This document shows, in pieces, positions 2,325 through 52,755 of a DNA stretch of 64,000 bases. Made by a program: the position numbers and the translations under genes. The stretch lies in the NCBI GenBank assembly GCA_964436955.1, contig CAYTFC010000003.1, positions 4,159 through 68,158 of the forward strand, in the 5' to 3' direction. The notes beneath the pieces were generated by a model. It did not search any database. It saw only the letters and a list, made by a program, of their open reading frames with translations, and was not told the origin of the DNA. This stretch comes from an uncultured bacterium. GTDB lineage: Bacteria > Chlamydiota > Chlamydiia > Chlamydiales > JAJFMA01. Each line of letters opens with the position of its first letter. Position 1 is the stretch's first letter.

Positions 2325-3956
2325 ATGCAGGGCTTTGTAGCCTGCTTGCTGGCAATCACATTCTCTTTTGCTCACATTTGGGCAGATGAACCACCTATTC
2401 CTTGCATCACAGTTGAAGTGCCGATGCGTGATGGGACGACATTGCCTACAGACATCTATCTTCCCAATGCAGAGGCCAAGGGGCTTCCCTGCGTATTGAT
2501 ACGCGCACCTAACGGTCGCAAATCGCATTACAAATCTTTTGCACCCTTAGCGATAGAAGGATATGCCGTAGCCATTCAGGATACGCGTAGTCATGTGGAT
2601 AGTGAAGGCAAGACAATGCCCTATCTCAGCGATGGATGGGGTGCATTACAAGATGGCTATGATACAGTACAATGGCTTGCTACCAGTCTCTATACCAATG
2701 GCAAGGTGGGTACTGCTGGAATTTCGGCCCAAGGAATCACACAACTACTTCTCGCACCTTCTTGTCCGCCCAATCTCATTTGCCAGCATATTGGAGTTGC
2801 TGCAGCAAGTATATATGATCAGGGCATGTTTCCGGGTGGTCAATTATTGAAGCATCAAGTAGAAGGCTGGCTTGGACAGTACGCTCCGCACCCTTCGGTC
2901 CTACAGATGGTCACGCGACAGATATTCTATAACGATTTTTGGGCCCAATTTGACACATCGAGTGTTGCGAGTCGTGTGCAGGTTCCTGGTCTCCACCATG
3001 GAGGATGGTACGATACGTTTTGTCAGGGCACCATTGATTCTTTCTGCTCGCGGCAACATAAAGGCGCGGATGGTGCGCGTGGCCAGCAAAAAATGGTGAT
3101 CGGCCCTTGGACCCACTGGTGGCACCAGTCAGTAGCCTTAGGGGATTATACGATTCCTGAAGCCGGACGCCAAGCCCCCGTAGACTTTTCCTTAAAGCGC
3201 TGGTTTGATCACTACCTTAAAGGAATAGATAACGGCATCGATAGAATACCCGCCATTACCTATTACGTCATGGGGCCATTTGATGGATCGTCCTCTAGTG
3301 GCAACGTATGGCGCAGCACCGATCAATGGCCGCCTGCCTCTACAGCGACTGATTTTTTTCTCACTCCTGACAGAAAACTGAGTACTAACCTACCAGCATC
3401 TGGACGTCTTTCGTTTCGTTATGATCCCTCAGACCCAAGCCCAACTTTAGGCGGACGCAATTTATTGTTGAAGGCCGGACCTGTCGATCAACGCCCCATT
3501 GAAGAGCGCTCAGATATACTTATTTTCACGACGGATGTGTTAGAAGAAGACGTAGAAGTAACAGGACGTATTCTAGCTAAGATGCTCTTCGCCTCAGATC
3601 AGCCAGATACCGATATTGTCGTGCGCTTAACGGATGTTTATCCTGATGGACGGAGCGTGCTTATTGCGGATGGAGTTAGGCGTTTAGCAGATGTTGTGCC
3701 TAGATATCTATCCTTGGGCAAGGCAGCTGGACCAAGAGTTGTTGAAGTTGATCTGTGGTCCACAAGTATTGTATTTGCTAAGGGACACCGCATTCGCGTT
3801 TCCGTGGCTAGTTCCAACTTTCCGCGCTATGCCAAGAATCTCAATGGAGGCAAGGAGAACGAACCCCCAAGGATCGCAATGAACACCCTGTACACTGGTC
3901 ATAAGCATGGATCTCGTATCATATTGCCTATAATCTCAAGAGAGAAAACTCAATGA
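2325..3956 (+). CDS. CocE/NonD-family (peptidase S15-type) alpha/beta hydrolase with N-terminal signal-like leader
   Basis: VPMRDGTTLPTDIYLP ... LIRAPNGRK N-terminal pattern, nucleophile elbow GISAQG, C-terminal beta-sandwich-type region; leader MQGFVACLLAITFSFAHIWA. Confidence 0.8.
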   Translation: MQGFVACLLAITFSFAHIWADEPPIPCITVEVPMRDGTTLPTDIYLPNAEAKGLPCVLIRAPNGRKSHYKSFAPLAIEGYAVAIQDTRSHVDSEGKTMPYLSDGWGALQDGYDTVQWLATSLYTNGKVGTAGISAQGITQLLLAPSCPPNLICQHIGVAAASIYDQGMFPGGQLLKHQVEGWLGQYAPHPSVLQMVTRQIFYNDFWAQFDTSSVASRVQVPGLHHGGWYDTFCQGTIDSFCSRQHKGADGARGQQKMVIGPWTHWWHQSVALGDYTIPEAGRQAPVDFSLKRWFDHYLKGIDNGIDRIPAITYYVMGPFDGSSSSGNVWRSTDQWPPASTATDFFLTPDRKLSTNLPASGRLSFRYDPSDPSPTLGGRNLLLKAGPVDQRPIEERSDILIFTTDVLEEDVEVTGRILAKMLFASDQPDTDIVVRLTDVYPDGRSVLIADGVRRLADVVPRYLSLGKAAGPRVVEVDLWSTSIVFAKGHRIRVSVASSNFPRYAKNLNGGKENEPPRIAMNTLYTGHKHGSRIILPIISREKTQ

Positions 3957-4639
3957 AAATCATCATTTTAGCCGCTGGAATTGGACGACGGTTAGGCATA
4001 GAAAACACACCTAAAGCATTAGCGCGCTTGGTAAACGGACAGAGTATTATTGAGCATCAATTGGAAAACATTGCCCGTTACCTAAGCTTAAGCGATGTTC
4101 GTGTTGTGGTGGGATACGAGCAGGATAAAATTAAGACCCTCTTTCCGCACCTTTCTTACATTGAAAATTCAAACTATGGCTCTGAAAACACCGCTAAGAG
4201 CTTGCAACGAGCTCTTAGTGAAGTCGGTAATGAAGCTGTGTTATGGTTGAACGGAGATGTCGTTTTTCACCACAAGATACTGGAGCCCCTGCTTGCACAA
4301 AGACGAAGTGCAATGATTGTTAATATAGGCGTTGTGGGGGAAGAAGAGGTCAAGTATCAAGCAGATGAATTTGGACGCATAATAGAAGTGGCTAAAGCAG
4401 TCGAAGATCCCTTAGGAGAAGCATTAGGCATTAACTTTTTTACGGAAGGGGATGCTCAGCTATTGAAGCAAGCGTTAGCGGAATGTGGCACTCAGGATTA
4501 CTTTGAGCGGGCCGTTCAAATCTGTTTAGATGCTGGTGTGGAGGTATGGACATCTGTAGTTTCTCCAGATTTATGCGTAGAAGTTGATTTTCTAGAGGAT
4601 TTAGGAAAAGCTAACCGCATGCTGAAGAGCTGGAAATAG
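3953..4639 (+). CDS. nucleotidyltransferase-family protein (LicC/MobA-like NTP transferase)
   Basis: MKIIILAAGIGRRLG N-terminal NTP-binding motif; ATGA overlap with upstream hydrolase gene. Confidence 0.7.
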   Translation: MKIIILAAGIGRRLGIENTPKALARLVNGQSIIEHQLENIARYLSLSDVRVVVGYEQDKIKTLFPHLSYIENSNYGSENTAKSLQRALSEVGNEAVLWLNGDVVFHHKILEPLLAQRRSAMIVNIGVVGEEEVKYQADEFGRIIEVAKAVEDPLGEALGINFFTEGDAQLLKQALAECGTQDYFERAVQICLDAGVEVWTSVVSPDLCVEVDFLEDLGKANRMLKSWK

Positions 4640-4698
4640 TTTTCTGAGGAGCACCACGTGCCTCGCGCATCCCTAAAACAGCTGCCTTTTCCTTGTGG

Positions 4699-4719
4699 GT
4701 CTGCCTCGCCGAGGCAGAC
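4699..4719. terminator. perfect 10+1+10 palindrome between convergent genes (bidirectional terminator candidate)
   Basis: GTCTGCCTCG-C-CGAGGCAGAC between the stops at 4639 and 4741. Confidence 0.4.
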
Positions 4720-4740
4720 AAGTTTCCTAAGGAAGCAGCA

Positions 4741-7700
4741 CTACAGGCTTTGTTTTTTTTTTATTTCGCGCCATTTGCTAGCGACGCTTGTGGCAATTGG
4801 GACGGCATCTCGGCCGAACGATCCATAGCGTAAATACACGACAACAACGAGTTCAGGACGTCCTTCCGGATCCTTAAAGACGGTTTCCTGTGATGTTCCA
4901 TCAAAGACAATTGTTCCGAACCACGTGTGGTTATAGGTGCGCGTACCTATTTGGCGATCAGGGCCAAAATTCTCTAAACTTTCTGCTGTGCTGGTCTTTC
5001 CTACTAATTGTCCTCGTAGATCGATCACGGATTGCAGGACCTCGGGATGAGGGGCATACAGTTCTTTCAAAGCATAAAACGTTTTGGTTTGATAACGGCT
5101 AGCGACTCGATGCATACCTTCGAGTAGTAAACTGCGAATAGGCGAGGGTAGCAGAACATGCCGCTCTACAATGCTATCTGGTGCTTCTGAGCGGCTTTCA
5201 CGCATACGTTGCGCGCTTGATAGAAAGAGAGGGAAGTCGATTCCTGCAGAAAGCAAGCTGTCTCGATAGTCAATGCCACGCCGACACGAGAGCGAAAAGT
5301 GGCGCGGTTGAGCTGTTCCCACAATGCTTTGAATGATTTTTGGCTGAAACACTTTCCCGCCGTTAGCCAAAGTTGAAAGCATAGTTGCTGTTTGCAATGG
5401 GGTGACCACCAAACTATGCTGTCCGATTGCCAAACTATATAGTCCATTGCGGTTATAGTCTAAATCTGAAGGGACTTTACCCGCAATTTCGCCTGGTAGT
5501 TGTATTCCTGTGCGTTGTCCATAAGATAGTGAGCGTGCGGCTTCAGCCAGGTCTAAGGGGCTTTCTAATACATCGCTTGTGAGCAGCGCAAAATAGCTAT
5601 TACTGGAAACTTCGATGGCTCTTACAACATCAAGTTCCCCGATGTTGGGGATTTGCGTTTTGGGAAGGAGTCCACCTTTATAGAATTGTGGGATGGGCTG
5701 TCCATCCATTGTGTAGCCGACGATCCAGTCATCCCTTACGCGAAGGGGTTGGTCCATAATTTTTAGTGGATTGAGGAGCTTTAGATCGGATCCTGATGCT
5801 TTTAATGCGATGTAGCGTTGCACTAATGCTTCATAGGCAGTCACAATTTTGAAAATGGAGCCTTGTGGGGTGGCCTGGCGATAGGCTATGGAGCGTCCAT
5901 AGCCAAAACCATAGGTGGGATAGAAGGCGGCAGCTAATTGCTTCTCATACTGTTGACCCTTTTCCCAACGTAATTGGCGATAGCGTCCATATAATGGGCG
6001 GTTTAACTCTTGATAGGAGCGCATGGTGGATAAGTATGCCTGCGCATTGGTATCGTCTAAATCCTGAAGGGTATTTTGTACTACGAGATAGTCCACATGC
6101 CATGGCATAGCCTGATGAGCGCCGTTTTTTATTTCTCGGTACCAGCTAGCAAAATAGTCTTGATAAGGTTCTAAAAGGGGGTTTCTTTCTAGGCCGCTCC
6201 CGCGAACAAACATGAGAACGAGCTTGGGTCCATTTGTCGCCCAAAATTCTTGAAACAATGCCTTTTCTTTTGCGTCGAGGTGCTCTGTATAGGGTTTGGC
6301 ATAGCGTTTATTTAAGACTTCTTCCCGTCGTTTGTCTTTCAAAAAGGTCTTTTCGTGAGCTTTACGCCATTCTTTAAAGGTCACGGTATGGAATAGGTCG
6401 CGGGTCATTTGATGCACTGCTTCTTGCACCACAATGCAGGCTTGGTTCACACGACGATAGTCGCTTAAAGACTGATCTCCAATGGACAGAAGCAGCTGCT
6501 GATTGAAGCGATCTCCATTCACTAGCATGCGGCAAAGATCGATAAGAAGTACCTTATCGTATGTATGCTTGACATCAGACAGATAGTGGTCAGTCTGAAA
6601 TTTGATCAGTTCGATTTCTTCAGCAGCGAGGTTAAGATTAGCTTCGATGCGCTCCCTTTCGGCGGCTGGTAAGGGACACGTTTGCGCTTGATGCCCGTTT
6701 TCTTGGTAGAGTAGGTTCAACAAGTAGGAAAGATCTGCTTGTCCACCGGCTGCAATGAGGCGGTCCGCAGCGCGTTGCAGGGCTACGGCACCATTGAGAT
6801 CGCGTACGTTCTTTAGACCTTTCACGACGTCGCCTTTCTCGTAGAGAGTGAGGTCGAGGTATTTTGACCAGCTTAAGGGTACGCTTTCTTCCCAAAAGCA
6901 GGTGTCACAGACTTCGCGTTGCAACGGACGCTTACCGTCCCACATGTTAGCTAGGTAATCATCGGTTTCAAACCACCGTCGAATGTTAGCTTTCTTGGTC
7001 GCGTTTAAAGTTGTGTCGCCTGAAGATACAAAGTCATTGGGATCGAATCGTGGCCAAGATGCCAACGCAACGATTTCGCCGTTATTGGGATCCATGGCTA
7101 CAATAGCGCCACCTTTAATCCACGGCTCCTTTACGGGCAGTTCTTCTTCTAACCGATGCGGCTTTGCCACACGTGTGTGTCGTATATGCTCGTTTTGAGC
7201 CAAAAGTTTTTCTGCGTGCTCTTGCAATTCTAGTGATAAGGTTAGCCCCACACTGCGACCCGGAATGGGTTGCCGCTGTCCTGGCAACTCGCGTAGATAG
7301 TTTCCCTTAGAATCCACGTAATAGCGCTTTTTTCCGTGATAGCCACGCAGGTCTTCCTCGAATTGCGCTTCAACTCCAGCCTTTCCTACATGATCATTGA
7401 TGGCGTAGGCGCGCTCGTCAATGTCGCGAAGGCGCTCACGCGCCTCTTCTACTGTCGCAAGGTTGAAGGGTAAAGGGGATTCTTGACCAGAGTCATATTC
7501 TCGAAAGTAACGCTGTAGAGACTTACGTTCGTGAATGATACCTTGGTATGTATTCGCATCAATCGCTCCCATATAGCCAACGATATCGCCTGCGGCACGT
7601 TCATAAGGATAATGACGCTTTGGAATACGCTGAGCTAGCAATCCCGGCCAGTCGGTTTCCAACATTTTTAGGCGATAGTATTCCTGTTCAGAAATATCCT

Positions 7701-24386: not shown

Positions 24387-27300
24387 ATGCTTTCATTTCT
24401 CAAGCGATTTTTCGGCACTGCACAGGACCGTAATGTACGTAAGTTTCGCAAAATTGTTGAAAAAATCAATCAATGGGAACAAAAGTTTCTAGATCTTTCC
24501 GACGATGAACTGCGTGGCAAAACAAACGAATTTCGCGAGCGCATAGCTAAGGGTGAAACGCTCGATGAGCTTCTTCCTGAAGCGTATGCCGTTGTGAAGG
24601 TTGCTTGCAGACGTCTGATGGGTACAGAAGTCCATGTGTCGGGTTACGATCAGAAATGGGATATGATTCCTTACGATGTACAGCTGATTGGTGGCATTGC
24701 CATGCATAGCGGAACAATCTCAGAGATGATGACTGGTGAGGGAAAAACTCTTACAGCGGTGCTTCCACTTTATTTGAACGCCCTGACAGGCAAGCCTGTT
24801 CATTTGGTTACTGTTAACGACTATCTCGCTGAACGTGACTGTCAGTGGGTCGGAACCATCCTACGTTGGCTAGGCCTTACGACGGGCGCTCTCACTAATG
24901 CCACACCCATAGAACAGCGTAAGCAGACATATAATTGCGATGTTGTCTATGGCACAGCCTCAGAATTTGGTTTTGACTATCTGCGTGATAACAGCATGGT
25001 CATGAATAAGAATGAGCAAGTCCAGCGTGGCTATTTCTTTGCTATCATAGATGAAGTGGACTCTGTCCTTATTGACGAAGCACGTACGCCTTTAATTATC
25101 TCCGGACCTTCGCCAGTAAGCCGTCAAATGTATGACCAATTGGAAGCTGGTGTAGCGGCCCTTGTTAAGCGGCAGCGAGATTTGTGCAACACCTTAGCCA
25201 CCGATGCGCGTAAAATTTTGGAAGAAGTTCAAAAAGCGCGCGAAAACGATACTTTCGATAAAAAGATGGGCGAAAAAGAGCGGGAAGCTCTTCATAAGTT
25301 ATGGCTTGTCACTAAAGGGACTCCGCGAAACAAGGTTCTCAAACGTCTTAAGGAAGATCCTGATGTCCGCGCAGGCATCGATGAATGGGATCTATTTTAC
25401 TATACGGACCAAAACAAGCCTGATAAGCACATAGCCATTTCTCAGATGTATATTACTGTCGATGAGAAAGCCAGTGAGTATGAACTCACCGATAAGGGCA
25501 TTACAGCTTGGGAAGAGGCCAGCAGTGGCGAGGTTTCCAGCAGCGACTTTATCATGCTCGATCTGGGCTATGAATATCACAAAATCGATCAAGACCCAGC
25601 TCTAGATGACGAAGCTAAGTTACGGGAACGTCTAGCCATCCAAGAGGAAGACACCAAACGCAAAGAACGTGCACACAACTTGCGCCAACTTCTGCGTGCT
25701 CACTTGCTAATGGAACGTGATGTCGATTACATGGTTCAAGAAGGCAAAGTTATCATCGTTGATGAACACACTGGCCGTCCACAGCCTGGACGTCGTTTCA
25801 GTGATGGTCTACATCAGGCAATAGAAGCCAAAGAGGGCGTTCCTATCCAGCGTGAAACGCAAACTTACGCCACGATTACACTACAGAACTACTTCCGTAT
25901 GTATGAAAAGCTGTCCGGAATGACGGGTACAGCAAACACAGAAGCCGGCGAGTTTAAGGAAATCTATAAATTGGATGTTTTGGAAATTCCAACGCATAAA
26001 ACATGCGTTCGCAAGGATTTCCATGATGAGATTTATATGACCGAGCGCGAGAAGTATAATGCTATTCTGAAGGAAGTGCGGGACATTAACTCACAAGGAC
26101 GCCCCATATTAATTGGTACAGAATCTGTTGAGGTTTCCGAAAAGCTTTCCCGAATCTTTAAGCAAAATGGCCTTGAACACACCGTTTTGAATGCGAAATA
26201 TCATGAACGTGAAGCAGAAATTATAGCTCTTGCGGGGCAGCGTGGTGCCATCACAATTGCCACTAACATGGCCGGTCGTGGAACGGATATTAAGTTGGGA
26301 AGCGGAGTTGCGGATGTCGGCGGTCTCTATGTTATGGGTACCACACGCCACCAGTCCCGACGTATCGACAGGCAGTTGAGAGGTCGATGCGCACGTCAAG
26401 GCGATCCTGGCACATCGAAGTTCTATGTGTCGTTTGAAGATCAGCTTTTGCGTCTATTCGCATCGCCAACATTGACTGGGATTTTGCAGAAATTACGCCC
26501 GCCTGAAGGCGAGCCCATTTCTGCACGTATGTTGGATAAATCCATCGAGACCGCACAGAAACGCGTTGAGCAGCGCAACTATACCATTCGTAAGCATACG
26601 CTAGAATACGACGATGTGATGAACAAGCAGCGTCAGGCTATTTACGAATTCCGTAATGAAGTATTGCAATCGGAAGACATTGAATCCATAGCTTTAGAAT
26701 TATTGCATACGGTTTGCTTGGCAGCGGGTGAAGATTATTTCCAGAGTCGTAGTCAAGAAAATGCGTGGGATCCAGAAGGCTATCGTCTTTGGCTCTTAGA
26801 GCATTTTCCTGTATCGTTTGAAGAAGGTGAGTTTGATGACGAGTATTCTGATGTCGATCATCTAGCGCAAAAAGCTTCAGATAAAATTGTGAAAGCATTT
26901 ACTGAGAAGCTTGCTCGCGAAAATGCGAAGGTTCCTGTTGCATCTGATGGTACGCGCCCTAACATAGCGAACAGAGCTATTCGCGACTTGATGATCCGTA
27001 AAATTGACAGCCGTTGGCAGGAACATCTTCTAACGATGGACCATTTGCGTGCCGATGTTAGTTTGCGTACGGTTGGTCAGCGTGATCCATTGATGGAGTT
27101 TAAACATGAAGCATTTCAGTTATTTAGTGATCTTTCGATCAATTTGCGTACAGACATTGCGCATGACATGTTCCGTTTTGAAATCATTACGCAGCAGCAA
27201 GCCAGTTTGCAGCAGCTTTTAAGTCGTCTGCACATGGAAACCAACCGCTCATTCCTGACAGAGTTGGAAGGTTTGCAGCCCTTACCACAGTCAGCGCAGG

Positions 27301-27452
27301 CTCCAACCAATGGCAAGCCAATGCTAGATCCCGAAATGCCTGAGAAGCTTGAGCCGGTTACAGTAGAGCAACGAGTAGGGCGTAACGACTTGTGTCCTTG
27401 TGGAAGTGGCCTCAAGTATAAAAAGTGCCACGGTAGAGGCAAAGAGGAGTAG
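24387..27452 (+). CDS. secA: preprotein translocase ATPase SecA
   Basis: MTGEGKTL Walker A, DEVDSVLIDEARTPLIISG, TNMAGRGTDI, C-terminal zinc motif CPCGSGLKYKKCHG; 1021 aa. Confidence 0.97.
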   Translation: MLSFLKRFFGTAQDRNVRKFRKIVEKINQWEQKFLDLSDDELRGKTNEFRERIAKGETLDELLPEAYAVVKVACRRLMGTEVHVSGYDQKWDMIPYDVQLIGGIAMHSGTISEMMTGEGKTLTAVLPLYLNALTGKPVHLVTVNDYLAERDCQWVGTILRWLGLTTGALTNATPIEQRKQTYNCDVVYGTASEFGFDYLRDNSMVMNKNEQVQRGYFFAIIDEVDSVLIDEARTPLIISGPSPVSRQMYDQLEAGVAALVKRQRDLCNTLATDARKILEEVQKARENDTFDKKMGEKEREALHKLWLVTKGTPRNKVLKRLKEDPDVRAGIDEWDLFYYTDQNKPDKHIAISQMYITVDEKASEYELTDKGITAWEEASSGEVSSSDFIMLDLGYEYHKIDQDPALDDEAKLRERLAIQEEDTKRKERAHNLRQLLRAHLLMERDVDYMVQEGKVIIVDEHTGRPQPGRRFSDGLHQAIEAKEGVPIQRETQTYATITLQNYFRMYEKLSGMTGTANTEAGEFKEIYKLDVLEIPTHKTCVRKDFHDEIYMTEREKYNAILKEVRDINSQGRPILIGTESVEVSEKLSRIFKQNGLEHTVLNAKYHEREAEIIALAGQRGAITIATNMAGRGTDIKLGSGVADVGGLYVMGTTRHQSRRIDRQLRGRCARQGDPGTSKFYVSFEDQLLRLFASPTLTGILQKLRPPEGEPISARMLDKSIETAQKRVEQRNYTIRKHTLEYDDVMNKQRQAIYEFRNEVLQSEDIESIALELLHTVCLAAGEDYFQSRSQENAWDPEGYRLWLLEHFPVSFEEGEFDDEYSDVDHLAQKASDKIVKAFTEKLARENAKVPVASDGTRPNIANRAIRDLMIRKIDSRWQEHLLTMDHLRADVSLRTVGQRDPLMEFKHEAFQLFSDLSINLRTDIAHDMFRFEIITQQQASLQQLLSRLHMETNRSFLTELEGLQPLPQSAQAPTNGKPMLDPEMPEKLEPVTVEQRVGRNDLCPCGSGLKYKKCHGRGKEE

Positions 27453-27528
27453 TCCCTTTGAGATAATTGCATAAGTCGGGTTGGCTTTTTCCGCTTTGTA
27501 AATAGACTTAGAAAGACATTATTTGTTC

Positions 27529-27778
27529 GAAAACCCCAAAAGGGGTTTCAAAATAATAGCCATGGGTAAGAACCCCGAGGGGTCGCAACCCATGGTATTG
27601 GCAATAGAATTCTGAACCCCGAACGGGGTTCCATATTTTTAAAATCCTATTTAAGACGTGCTGTGGATGATATTGAACCCGCTTCGGGGTTCGAGTTCTT
27701 CTCGCATTTTCCATGGGTTACGACCTCTTTCGAGGTCTTACCCATGGCTATTATTTTGAAACCCCTTTGGGGGTTTTC
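27529..27778. repeat. compound nested palindrome / hairpin cluster (element B)
   Basis: 43-nt inverted repeats 27529-27571 / 27736-27778 (one indel); each arm holds a CCATGGGT...ACCCATGG sub-palindrome; 6-7 short GC hairpins of the type GAACCCC-N4-GGGGTTC. Confidence 0.8.
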
Positions 27779-27878
27779 AGCCGCTTTGCGGCTAATAATC
27801 AAAGACATAAAGCATAAACAATTTTAGAGATCAAAGAGACGAAAGGGACAGATGCCCGTTGCGCCCCTTTAACTTAGA

Positions 27879-28364
27879 TTAAGCGGTTTGTTCGTCGAGT
27901 CCCTTAAGGACTTTGCAACCTAGGCCTAGAAGGGCTAACCCACTGCTTAGATACACATACCAGTAGTCCCCGTTCCAGTTCAACGTGAAGACTCCGTTTT
28001 GCGAGAATAGCCAAAGCACTAACCCAAATAAGAAAAAGACCGAACCGCCCAGTAAAAACAACAAAGAAGAGAATACCGTTGTGCTATCCGACGTGTTAAC
28101 ATTCTCTTCGCTTACCACGTCCTCTTCTTCTTCCACCACACGTTTGCCCAAACCTTCAAAAGGTGGCTGCGGAGCTTTCGCGGGTTTCGCCTCTTGCAAC
28201 ATGGCATAGGGAGGCGCTAAAGGATCTACGCCTTGTTTTTTCTTGGCCTGCTTGGGGTTTGCCCCTTCTTTTAGACTCGCTCCACAATAGGTACATTGGT
28301 CGACTGCTAGTGAAAGACTTCCGTCGCAGTTCCAGCATAGCCGTTTCTTGGGTGTTGCACTCAT
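27879..28364 (-). CDS. hypothetical zinc-ribbon membrane protein
   Basis: CWNCDGS...CTYCGAS zinc ribbon, Pro/Lys-rich linker, acidic run, two C-terminal TM helices; start ambiguous (ATG 28364, ATG 28418 or TTG 28427). Confidence 0.5.
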   Translation of the reverse strand: MSATPKKRLCWNCDGSLSLAVDQCTYCGASLKEGANPKQAKKKQGVDPLAPPYAMLQEAKPAKAPQPPFEGLGKRVVEEEEDVVSEENVNTSDSTTVFSSLLFLLGGSVFFLFGLVLWLFSQNGVFTLNWNGDYWYVYLSSGLALLGLGCKVLKGLDEQTA

Positions 28365-28440
28365 CGCCGTCGCTTGGTATATGGGGTTAGCATTACATCT
28401 ATCGCTTAAACGTCGCATTTCTTTCAAGGGACATTTGCGT

Positions 28441-32543: not shown

Positions 32544-32792
32544 GTTTTGATTTTTTAGGATTTTTACCACAGAGGCACAGAGACACTGAGAAGGACCTGC
32601 GATTTAGAGGTCGGTTTTAGGGACTTTTTCTGGTCTTGAGAGACCAGAAAAAATTGCCTCAGTTTAACAGTTAAATGAGCTGGGTCTCCAGGCCTCTCAA
32701 GGCCTGGAGACTCCCTAAAACCGGTCTCTTAACCGCAGGCCCTTCTCAGTGTCTCTGTGCCTCTGTGGTAAAAATCCTAAAAAAAATCAAAC
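32544..32792. repeat. ~250-bp long-arm palindrome (element C) upstream of sctJ
   Basis: 32557-32594 is the exact reverse complement of 32741-32778 (38 bp); ~80-nt arms overall; internal hairpins 32625-32652 and 32684-32711. Confidence 0.9.
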
Positions 32793-52534: not shown

Positions 52535-52599
52535 AGTAAAATCCAGAATTTAGTATTGTGGAAACTCTAGCATAATGTGAAATTTGATGTGTAGAGGTT

Positions 52600-52705
52600 A
52601 GACCCTGATTGCTACCCAATGCAGTCAACTTAAAATAAACCTTTGTTAATGCCGCTTCGCCGAAGTGGTATTAACAAAGGTTTATTTTAAGTTGACAGCA
52701 TTGGG
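52600..52705. repeat. 91-nt hairpin palindrome (element E) plus flanking 17-mer, in a divergent promoter region
   Basis: 45-nt arms 52615-52659 / 52661-52705 with 3 mismatches (two are G:T); core GCCGCTTCGCCGAAGTGG related to element D. Confidence 0.85.
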
Positions 52706-52755
52706 TGGCAAGTCGGGTTTAAAGCTTGGGCATCGATAATTCCAAGCCGATCACC

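Follow-up and report, generated by a model that had tools for sequence, protein, structure and literature searches.

The REP/REPIN-RAYT system, made up of repetitive extragenic palindromes (REPs), their inverted doublets (REPINs) and REP-associated tyrosine transposases (RAYTs), is the standard textbook example of a domesticated transposase that coexists with non-autonomous repeats of its own. Until now such systems have been linked to Y1 enzymes of class 2 and to palindromes tagged with GT[AG]G. Y1 HUH enzymes act on single-stranded DNA (ssDNA), where they bind an imperfect hairpin, the cleavage site being set by a tetranucleotide at the 5' foot of that hairpin (PMC6006769). Another group of Y1 enzymes, subclass 1.2 (Quentin et al. 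2018, PMC6006769), is characterised by a median length of 148 aa, the motifs DH[IV]H, WQ and YIKNQKEHH and a low copy number, and was reported from Bacteroidetes and Cyanobacteria without associated REPs (PMC6006769). In the current work a window of 64,000 nt (64 kb) from an uncultured member of the Chlamydiales (contig CAYTFC010000003.1) was analyzed, and the subject of this text is a 250-bp near-palindromic element located in this window, 3' of secA. The element is here read, with a probability of roughly 0.8, as an orphan, gene-less, REPIN-like doublet of a composite three-hairpin unit which is tied to Y1 transposases of subclass 1.2. Coordinates given without a locus label are positions in the window; loci in other genomes and metagenomes carry a label of the form L012.

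The element is composed of two composite units in inverted orientation, each containing three hairpins that are named H1, P and H3. The units were matched with two covariance models, R1 (derived from alignment A1, holding 26 units) and R2 (derived from alignment A2, holding 39 realigned matches that represent 38 distinct units). The corresponding features are given below, those of the right unit being marked with a prime.

27529..27778, no strand: the whole element, a doublet of two inverted composite units (REPIN-like), 250 bp, near-palindrome.
27529..27631, plus strand: left unit, with H1, a linker containing the tag, P, a spacer and H3 (models R1/R2).
27531..27548, plus strand: hairpin H1, AAACCCC-AAAA-GGGGTTT, read from the sequence.
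27549..27559, plus strand: linker CAAAATAATAG, 11 nt, the last four bases of which are ATAG (27556-27559).
27560..27595, plus strand: hairpin P, with an 8-bp stem CCATGGGT/ACCCATGG formed around the inner hairpin ACCCC-GA-GGGGT (27572-27583).
27614..27631, plus strand: H3 of the left unit, GAACCCC-GAAC-GGGGTTC, read from the sequence and by pattern count.
27632..27674, no strand: central spacer, 43 nt, corresponding to the position of the Y1 gene in cassettes that carry one (compare L012, L029 and L030).
27675..27778, minus strand: right unit, inverted (models R1/R2).
27675-27692, right unit: H3', GAACCC-GCTTCG-GGGTTC.
27711-27747, right unit: P', with the inner hairpin GACCTC-TTTC-GAGGTC at 27722-27737.
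27748-27751, right unit: CTAT, the complement of the tag.
27759-27776, right unit: H1', partner of the left H1.
27779..27793, no strand: hairpin AGCCGC-TTT-GCGGCT, which abuts the right end of the element, outside the inverted repeat, and does not belong to the unit family.

Hairpin P is read, in order, as CCATGGGT, AAGA, the small inner hairpin, CG(C/T)A and ACCCATGG, and is followed after a spacer of ~18 nt by H3, which in both window units has the general form GAACCC(C)-loop-GGGGTTC. The ATAG at 27556-27559 constitutes the 5' foot of P, the same position as that taken by the GT[AG]G 'guide' tetranucleotide of REPs. The two units are mirror-symmetric about position 27653. Their outer arms, each of 43 nt (27529-27571 and 27736-27778), pair without a gap at 98% complementarity, the single mismatch falling in the H1 loop (AAAA versus CAAA), and the inner arms, of 59 nt, are 71% complementary. 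The inner hairpins of P differ between the units (ACCCC/GGGGT versus GACCTC/GAGGTC) and both still pair, so that the local hairpins are kept and the long-range pairing between the halves is weakened. All of the hairpins and inverted repeats that an earlier, sequence-only reading of this DNA had described are present where it placed them. The single indel which it assigned to the 43-nt arms is in fact the mismatch in the H1 loop, and its six to seven short hairpins, real as they are, do not make up one family but three types (H1, P and H3) distributed over two inverted units, with the hairpin at 27779-27793 left outside. This last hairpin is matched by neither R1 nor R2, is not followed by a T-run on either strand, and may be the 3'-end hairpin of a minus-strand open reading frame (ORF).

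All four matches in the window to AACCC-N2-8-GGGTT are located within the element (0.24 expected), while CCATGGGT-N4-30-ACCCATGG and a 23-nt core of the arms are each matched twice in the window (0.00 expected in either case). When folded as ssDNA, the region 27525-27795 reaches -91 kcal/mol as compared to -32.7 +/- 3.6 in shuffled sequences (z = -16), and each half-unit by itself folds into three local hairpins (z = -5.5 for the left and -7.4 for the right half). The left unit (27529-27600) was scored at 58.1 bits by R1 (E 1e-11) and at 54.8 bits by R2, and the right unit (27706-27778, minus strand) at 58.6 and 57.1 bits, respectively; with the filters switched off, no unit beyond these two was found in the 64-kb window, the next best score being 16.8 bits. 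The window element is, as a REPIN is defined, an inverted doublet forming a long hairpin.

The unit was found again at ~20 metagenome and genome loci. A metagenome scan with the pattern TAATAGCCATGGGT-N4-30-ACCCATGG returned 18 loci, nearly all of which exhibit H1 at a fixed distance, a linker ending in AATAG, and P; most units elsewhere also have an H3, of the AACCC-TGAAG-GGGTT type, 18-29 nt downstream of P. Two matches to the pattern were excluded as non-members, being a bare palindrome without H1 (L015) and a tandem repeat of the CCATGGGTATA type (L020). Six units are present on five contigs of one metagenome assembly (PJEL01), and at five loci of this assembly (L017, L018, L019, L025 and L027) another module, TTTTGGCG-N-ATTTTTG(hairpin)CAAAAAT-AATGACAAAA, takes the place of H3 downstream of P, which suggests that modular variants of the unit exist. 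Species-representative genomes were scanned with the 19-mer CAAAATAATAGCCATGGGT, giving nine loci. Seven of these (L002, L003, L005, L006, L008, L009 and L010) were discarded as chance-level single matches from which the surrounding architecture is absent, and four units were obtained on two contigs of one Cloacimonadota metagenome-assembled genome (MAG), sharing the linker and P with the window units and having a different H1 stem (CTGCCC..GGGCAG). At the Cloacimonadota loci (L004 1100-1560 and L007 2400-2640) the unit is contained in a longer tandem repeat with a period of ~215 nt, which bears the extra conserved hairpins GCAATTG..CAATTGC and AGACGCACGGCCGTGCGTCT. A scan of viral contigs with the P pattern gave 0 matches. 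Gene-less inverted doublets comparable to that of the window occur in four other organisms, with (+)(-) doublets of 213 bp at L022, 199 bp at L024, 231 bp at L026 and 240 bp at L031/L032, the latter present twice in tandem.

Base pairing is maintained across these units by changes on both sides of the stems. For A1 the paired fraction of cells amounts to 92.6%, with double changes in seven pairs; in A2 the paired fraction is 93.4%, as compared to at most 47% when the partners are slid, 10 of the 14 pairs are changed on both sides, and the covariation score is 0.407 versus 0.137 +/- 0.014 in shuffles. All six pairs of H1 covary, and the helix of P is 99% paired over the 38 units, with double (compensatory) changes in four of its eight pairs. 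H1 and H3 are conserved as structures, not as sequences. The A/T linker ends in AATAG, which does not vary in A1.

The evidence that connects this unit with a Y1 gene comes from loci retrieved in two ways. At L012 a unit is located directly upstream of a 148-aa ORF and an inverted unit directly downstream of it, the order being H1-P-H3-gene-H3'-P'-CTAT-H1', with P' present as the compensated variant CCACGGGT/ACCCGTGG; L023 is arranged in the same way, with a frameshifted gene between the units. Six further loci were selected by protein similarity alone (L029, L030, L031/32, L033, L038 and L039), and in 6/6 of these units are found at <=250 bp from the Y1 gene, on both sides and inverted in 5/6, to be set against the report of subclass 1.2 as being without REPs (PMC6006769). 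Inverted units flank the gene on both sides at L029 (from an isolate of Rhodohalobacter barkolensis), L033 and L038, and likewise at L030, where the P stems are wholly different (CTTCGCGT/ACGCGAAG and CCATGCAT/ATGCATGG) and the ATAG/ATAA tag is kept. Upstream of the gene at L031/L032 and L039, tandem arrays of (+)(-) doublets are present which resemble bacterial interspersed mosaic elements (BIMEs). Taken over the protein-anchored loci, the P stems are wholly different with the tag retained (CCCTGGGT, CCACGGGT, CCCCGGAT, CTTCGCGT and CCATGCAT), and an ATAG or ATAA tag is seen at loci that were found by means of the Y1 protein alone. The arrangement known as a REPtron, in which inverted copies flank a single-copy Y1 gene, is present at L012, L023, L029, L030, L033 and L038, while L031/32 and L039 carry arrays and the window itself is without a Y1 gene. 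The region 3554-5764 of locus L032 also contains a group II intron (its ORF with RVT_1 and GIIM domains at 4094-5533), located between the Y1 gene and the downstream unit (5710-5764).

A tblastx comparison of two Balneolaceae genomes shows collinearity over ~12.7 kb, except for the unit-Y1-unit cassette, which is flipped as a whole between the same flanking genes (L012 3150-3860 versus L029 9840-10570). Since it is flipped between otherwise collinear genomes, the cassette behaves as a discrete module, and the comparison of the two sequences indicates that it can evidently flip or re-insert in place. Hairpins of the AAACCTCCAAGG..CCTTGGAGGTTT type are also found on both flanks of the cassette at these two loci. 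Considering that the window doublet has the layout of such a cassette with a 43-nt spacer in the place of the gene, it is taken to be the counterpart of a REPIN, a non-autonomous doublet.

The 148-aa product is matched by PF01797 with 83 bits and by the NCBIfam IS200 model (NF033573) with 61 bits (cut-off 55), as opposed to 22.4 bits with the NCBIfam RAYT model REP_Tyr_transpos, for which the cut-off is 80. In a profile search of the PDB the TnpA structures of IS608 and ISDra2 were retrieved at E values from 1e-7 to 1e-5, and no TnpAREP entry was retrieved at E <= 0.01. More than 4,000 homologues were obtained at E <= 1e-10; identities of 65-89% are seen for the best 120, which belong to Balneolaceae, Saprospiraceae and Draconibacterium, with most clusters being represented on one contig. 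The motifs of the family, DH[ILV]H, WQ and Y[IV]KNQ.EHH, match those of subclass 1.2, to which the genes beside the units are assigned by this signature. The automatic REP search of Quentin et al. (2018) required GT[AG]G (PMC6006769), and units tagged with ATAG would therefore have been missed by it. The window doublet, being in a member of the Chlamydiales, lies outside the range reported for subclass 1.2. The tie between the unit and subclass 1.2 appears not to have been described before: no later description of it was found in a literature search, itself incomplete, and a search for the string TAGCCATGGGT retrieved primers and unrelated sequences only.

With the REP/REPIN-RAYT system (Bertels & Rainey 2011, PMC3116915; PMC6006769) the unit has its function and general layout in common, sharing a palindromic hairpin whose 5' foot bears a conserved tetranucleotide, inverted copies that flank a single-copy Y1 HUH gene as in a REPtron, gene-less inverted doublets that fold as one long hairpin as do REPINs, tandem arrays of alternating orientation beside the gene as in BIMEs, and a hairpin sequence that co-varies with the enzyme lineage. 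Unlike REPs, each of which is one palindrome of 20-40 nt, the unit combines three hairpins in ~100 nt, and whereas REPs are usually lineage-specific, P in its CCATGGGT version hardly differs between phyla. With IS200/IS605 elements (IS608, ISDra2) the system has in common the fold and family of the enzyme, and also the principle of recognition, by which subterminal hairpins carry a guide tetranucleotide on their 5' side. The gene found beside the units of other genomes encodes a Y1 transposase of the IS200 type, set apart from typical IS200 by its subclass 1.2 signature. The two ends of an IS200/IS605 element consist of unlike hairpins that share one strand and lack inverted symmetry, and the genes are multi-copy and near-identical, whereas here inverted copies of one unit are found with a gene that is, as a rule, single-copy and in a syntenic position. 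An IS200/IS605 end pair was rejected as an identity for the element because the units to either side of the gene or spacer are inverted relative to each other.

The element also resembles classical miniature inverted-repeat transposable elements (MITEs) in being short, non-coding and intergenic (250 bp, with terminal inverted repeats of 43 nt), yet a classical MITE was rejected given the lack of a target-site duplication, a partner of the Y1 HUH rather than the DDE type, and the conserved internal set of hairpins. Among the identities offered by the sequence-only reading, that of a BIME/REP-like array is borne out by the units which, inverted, flank a Y1 HUH gene in other genomes and by the alternating arrays at L031/L032 and L039. 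A decayed nested MITE describes correctly a gene-less element bounded by inverted repeats, and errs in that there is no target-site duplication and that the inner hairpins are part of the design of the unit and not nested insertions. The RAYT-type gene for which that reading proposed to search has its equivalent in the Y1 HUH gene beside the units of other genomes, an IS200-like gene and not a canonical RAYT (class 2 TnpAREP). The Rfam scan which it also proposed yielded, at the gathering threshold, only three tRNA genes in the window (9551-9621, 12782-12856 and 12869-12942). Within the element no Rfam family reached this threshold, the best local match being a partial one to CRISPR-DR17 (27.5 bits versus 42), and permissive thresholds added a sub-threshold match to VR-RNA (20 bits). 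A CRISPR was rejected, as the element consists of two inverted copies and not of an array.

A number of observations weigh against the reading of the element as a REPIN-like doublet. The tag is ATAG (ATAA in some units) and, unlike in REPs, never GT[AG]G, and the partner enzyme belongs to class 1 (Y---Q--HH, IS200-like) and not, as do RAYTs, to class 2 (Y---NP); on these two defining points, tag sequence and enzyme class, the system falls outside REP/REPIN-RAYT, and the analogy to the biochemistry of TnpAREP is therefore tentative. The window provides a single doublet in 64 kb of the source genome, where a multi-copy status is unproven, and contains no Y1 homologue detectable by tblastn at E<1. 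No locus of the source species was returned by the scan of species-representative genomes, and partial hints of dispersed copies within one genome come from elsewhere, namely from the six units on five contigs of PJEL01 and the four units on two contigs of the Cloacimonadota MAG. In the 20-kb loci around Y1 genes the units crowd beside the gene and are rare farther off, and the family may never reach REP-like copy numbers. Neither a target-site duplication nor an empty-site alignment is available to define an insertion event, the flanks at 27528/27779 (...TTGTTC / AGCCGC...) being without a direct repeat. Finally, the invariance in alignment A1 of the columns covered by TAATAGCCATGGGT...ACCCATGG, a pattern that includes part of P, is partly a matter of construction, as the metagenome loci were ascertained by exact matches to this pattern, the independent evidence being that of the protein-anchored loci.

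The genomic setting of the element is defined by the following genes and ORFs.

24387..27452, plus strand: secA, with Pfam SecA domains, which stops 76 nt before the element.
27879..28427, minus strand: convergent ORF of 182 aa, which ends 100 nt from the element; no Pfam match.
27508..27714, minus strand: ORF of 68 aa, which overlaps the left unit and the spacer; no Pfam match.

The 68-aa ORF, previously taken for an artefact, falls within the palindrome and is in all likelihood spurious. SecA of the window shares 84% identity with the SecA of a Chlamydiales MAG and 71% with that of Protochlamydia, which marks the source as an environmental chlamydia; a search of a plasmid collection confirmed secA only. 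In three relatives from the Chlamydiales with SecA proteins that are 81-87% identical (L035, L036 and L037), no unit is present after secA; L037 is syntenic and carries a minus-strand gene in the place of the 182-aa ORF. Because the relatives are without the unit at this site, the doublet is considered a lineage-specific feature of the insertion type and not a conserved part of secA. Each of the three instead has its own, unrelated inverted-repeat element directly 3' of secA (L035 13080-13160, L036 4790-4960 and L037 4250-4390), which suggests that the region 3' of secA is a hotspot or preferred landing site for small mobile elements. The boundaries of the insertion are not definable from these relatives, in which the intergenic DNA is too diverged and is occupied by the other elements. 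A Logan contig with an identical secA (L001) ends in the left arm (L001 13143-13173, corresponding to window ~27529-27559), an instance of a short-read assembly broken by the inverted repeat. This end was rejected as evidence for multiple copies, since an inverted repeat of 43 nt that exceeds the k-mer of the assembler can break a contig by itself.

The alternative that survives best, unlikely as we consider it to be, is that a complete unit-Y1-unit cassette arrived after secA by horizontal transfer and later lost its gene by deletion in situ, so that the doublet never transposed as such. The layout in the window is indeed that of a cassette minus its gene, neither a Y1 gene nor a second copy is present in the 64 kb, and the family is otherwise found in Bacteroidota, Balneolaceae and Cloacimonadota, which makes the transfer of a whole cassette plausible. 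Yet the 43-nt spacer contains no significant remnant of a Y1 gene, its best match being the 8-nt CTATTTAA at E about 5. The outer 43 nt of the two window units are 98% alike, in contrast to gene-bearing cassettes, in which the unit on the left clearly differs in type from that on the right, and gene-less doublets of the same size, tandem copies included, exist in the four other organisms mentioned above.

A role as a host regulatory element, i.e. a bidirectional terminator or an mRNA-stabilising 3' structure serving the convergent transcripts of secA and the 182-aa ORF, is judged improbable. It would fit the location between convergent genes and the T-rich tails behind two of the hairpins, and it has a precedent in the REPs of E. 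coli, which act as terminators and stabilisers and whose presence between convergent genes goes along with higher expression (bioRxiv 10.64898/2026.03.23.713779). The number of terminator-like sites is not above that of shuffled sequences, as the scan returned two plus-strand sites (27614-27631 and 27673-27694) versus 1.0 +/- 1.0. The element is absent after secA in the three relatives, which have the unrelated inverted repeats described above, and the occurrence of the unit in many unrelated contexts and beside Y1 genes leaves room for a secondary exaptation at most. By analogy with the E. coli REPs, the hairpins may still present an incidental barrier at the 3' ends of the secA and 182-aa ORF transcripts. 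The suggestion in the sequence-only reading of a structured 3' untranslated region or small RNA fared poorly, given the empty Rfam result for the element and its absence after secA in the relatives, and would at most describe a side effect. A structured non-coding RNA gene (a small RNA or riboswitch-like element), to which the strong local folding and the covariation in H1 and P might point, is highly improbable, as no Rfam family is reached at threshold, no promoter-like site was found upstream, and the units occur in both orientations, mirrored around a gene or spacer, which argues for a site acting at the level of DNA and not of a transcript.

Under the preferred reading, i.e. that of an orphan REPIN-like doublet, a mechanism may be proposed by analogy with the TnpA enzymes of IS608 and ISDra2 and with TnpAREP of E. 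coli. A Y1 enzyme would bind and cut, on ssDNA, the hairpin P with ATAG at its 5' foot, and this enzyme would next act in trans to move or copy the doublet. The position of ATAG at the foot of an 8-bp stem that covaries with the lineage would fit such a guide role. H1 and H3 could serve as accessory binding sites, help to place the cut or shield the gene against transcription. The copy in the Chlamydiales would have been mobilised from elsewhere in the genome or would represent the remnant of a horizontally acquired cassette. Mobilisation of the doublet by a Y1 enzyme, as suggested by these analogies, is held with less confidence than the identification of the doublet itself.

We also lean, with some reservation, towards a wider proposal according to which subclass 1.2 enzymes, IS200-like yet not part of an insertion sequence, possess a cognate, ATAG-tagged, three-hairpin unit of ~100 nt that flanks their gene as inverted copies, forms REPIN-like doublets and BIME-like arrays and whose CCATGGGT is near-invariant across Bacteroidota, Balneolaceae, Cloacimonadota and Chlamydiales. 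The enzymes and their unit would together constitute a second, independently evolved (class 1) system of a domesticated transposase plus REPIN, the cassette of which can flip in place and which would have reached a chlamydia by horizontal transfer.

Other repeats in the window were recorded alongside the element. Positions 32551-32784 hold a MITE-like repeat, unrelated to the element 3' of secA, with 73-nt arms that are 93% complementary and 88 nt apart, and with T-rich/A-rich bounds. An intergenic, near-perfect palindrome of 125 bp is present at 52598-52722 (62-nt arms, 87% complementary, 1 nt apart). Just downstream of the tRNA genes, at 13541-13685, short repeats of the GGACCTAAAGGAC type form an inverted repeat with 43-nt arms that are 93% complementary. 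The same motif type occurs in the Chlamydiales MAG L035 right after secA (13090-13160) and again 1.1 kb further on (14200-14260), and these repeats probably constitute another small repeat family common to these chlamydiae.

For the window itself, the element is a modest and explainable feature, and it is the association of the unit with a Y1 gene that is of interest. The work presented here links to its own unit a branch of Y1 enzymes different from that of the RAYTs, namely subclass 1.2, which is the closest relative of the true IS200 transposases and was previously described as partnerless. For annotation, the unit accounts for clusters of intergenic hairpins in MAGs, an environmental Chlamydiales genome among them, and for the spurious short ORFs and assembly breaks which these may cause. 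With ATAG plus an 8-bp stem, it provides a concrete candidate recognition site for a family of enzymes that is uncharacterised and comprises thousands of members.

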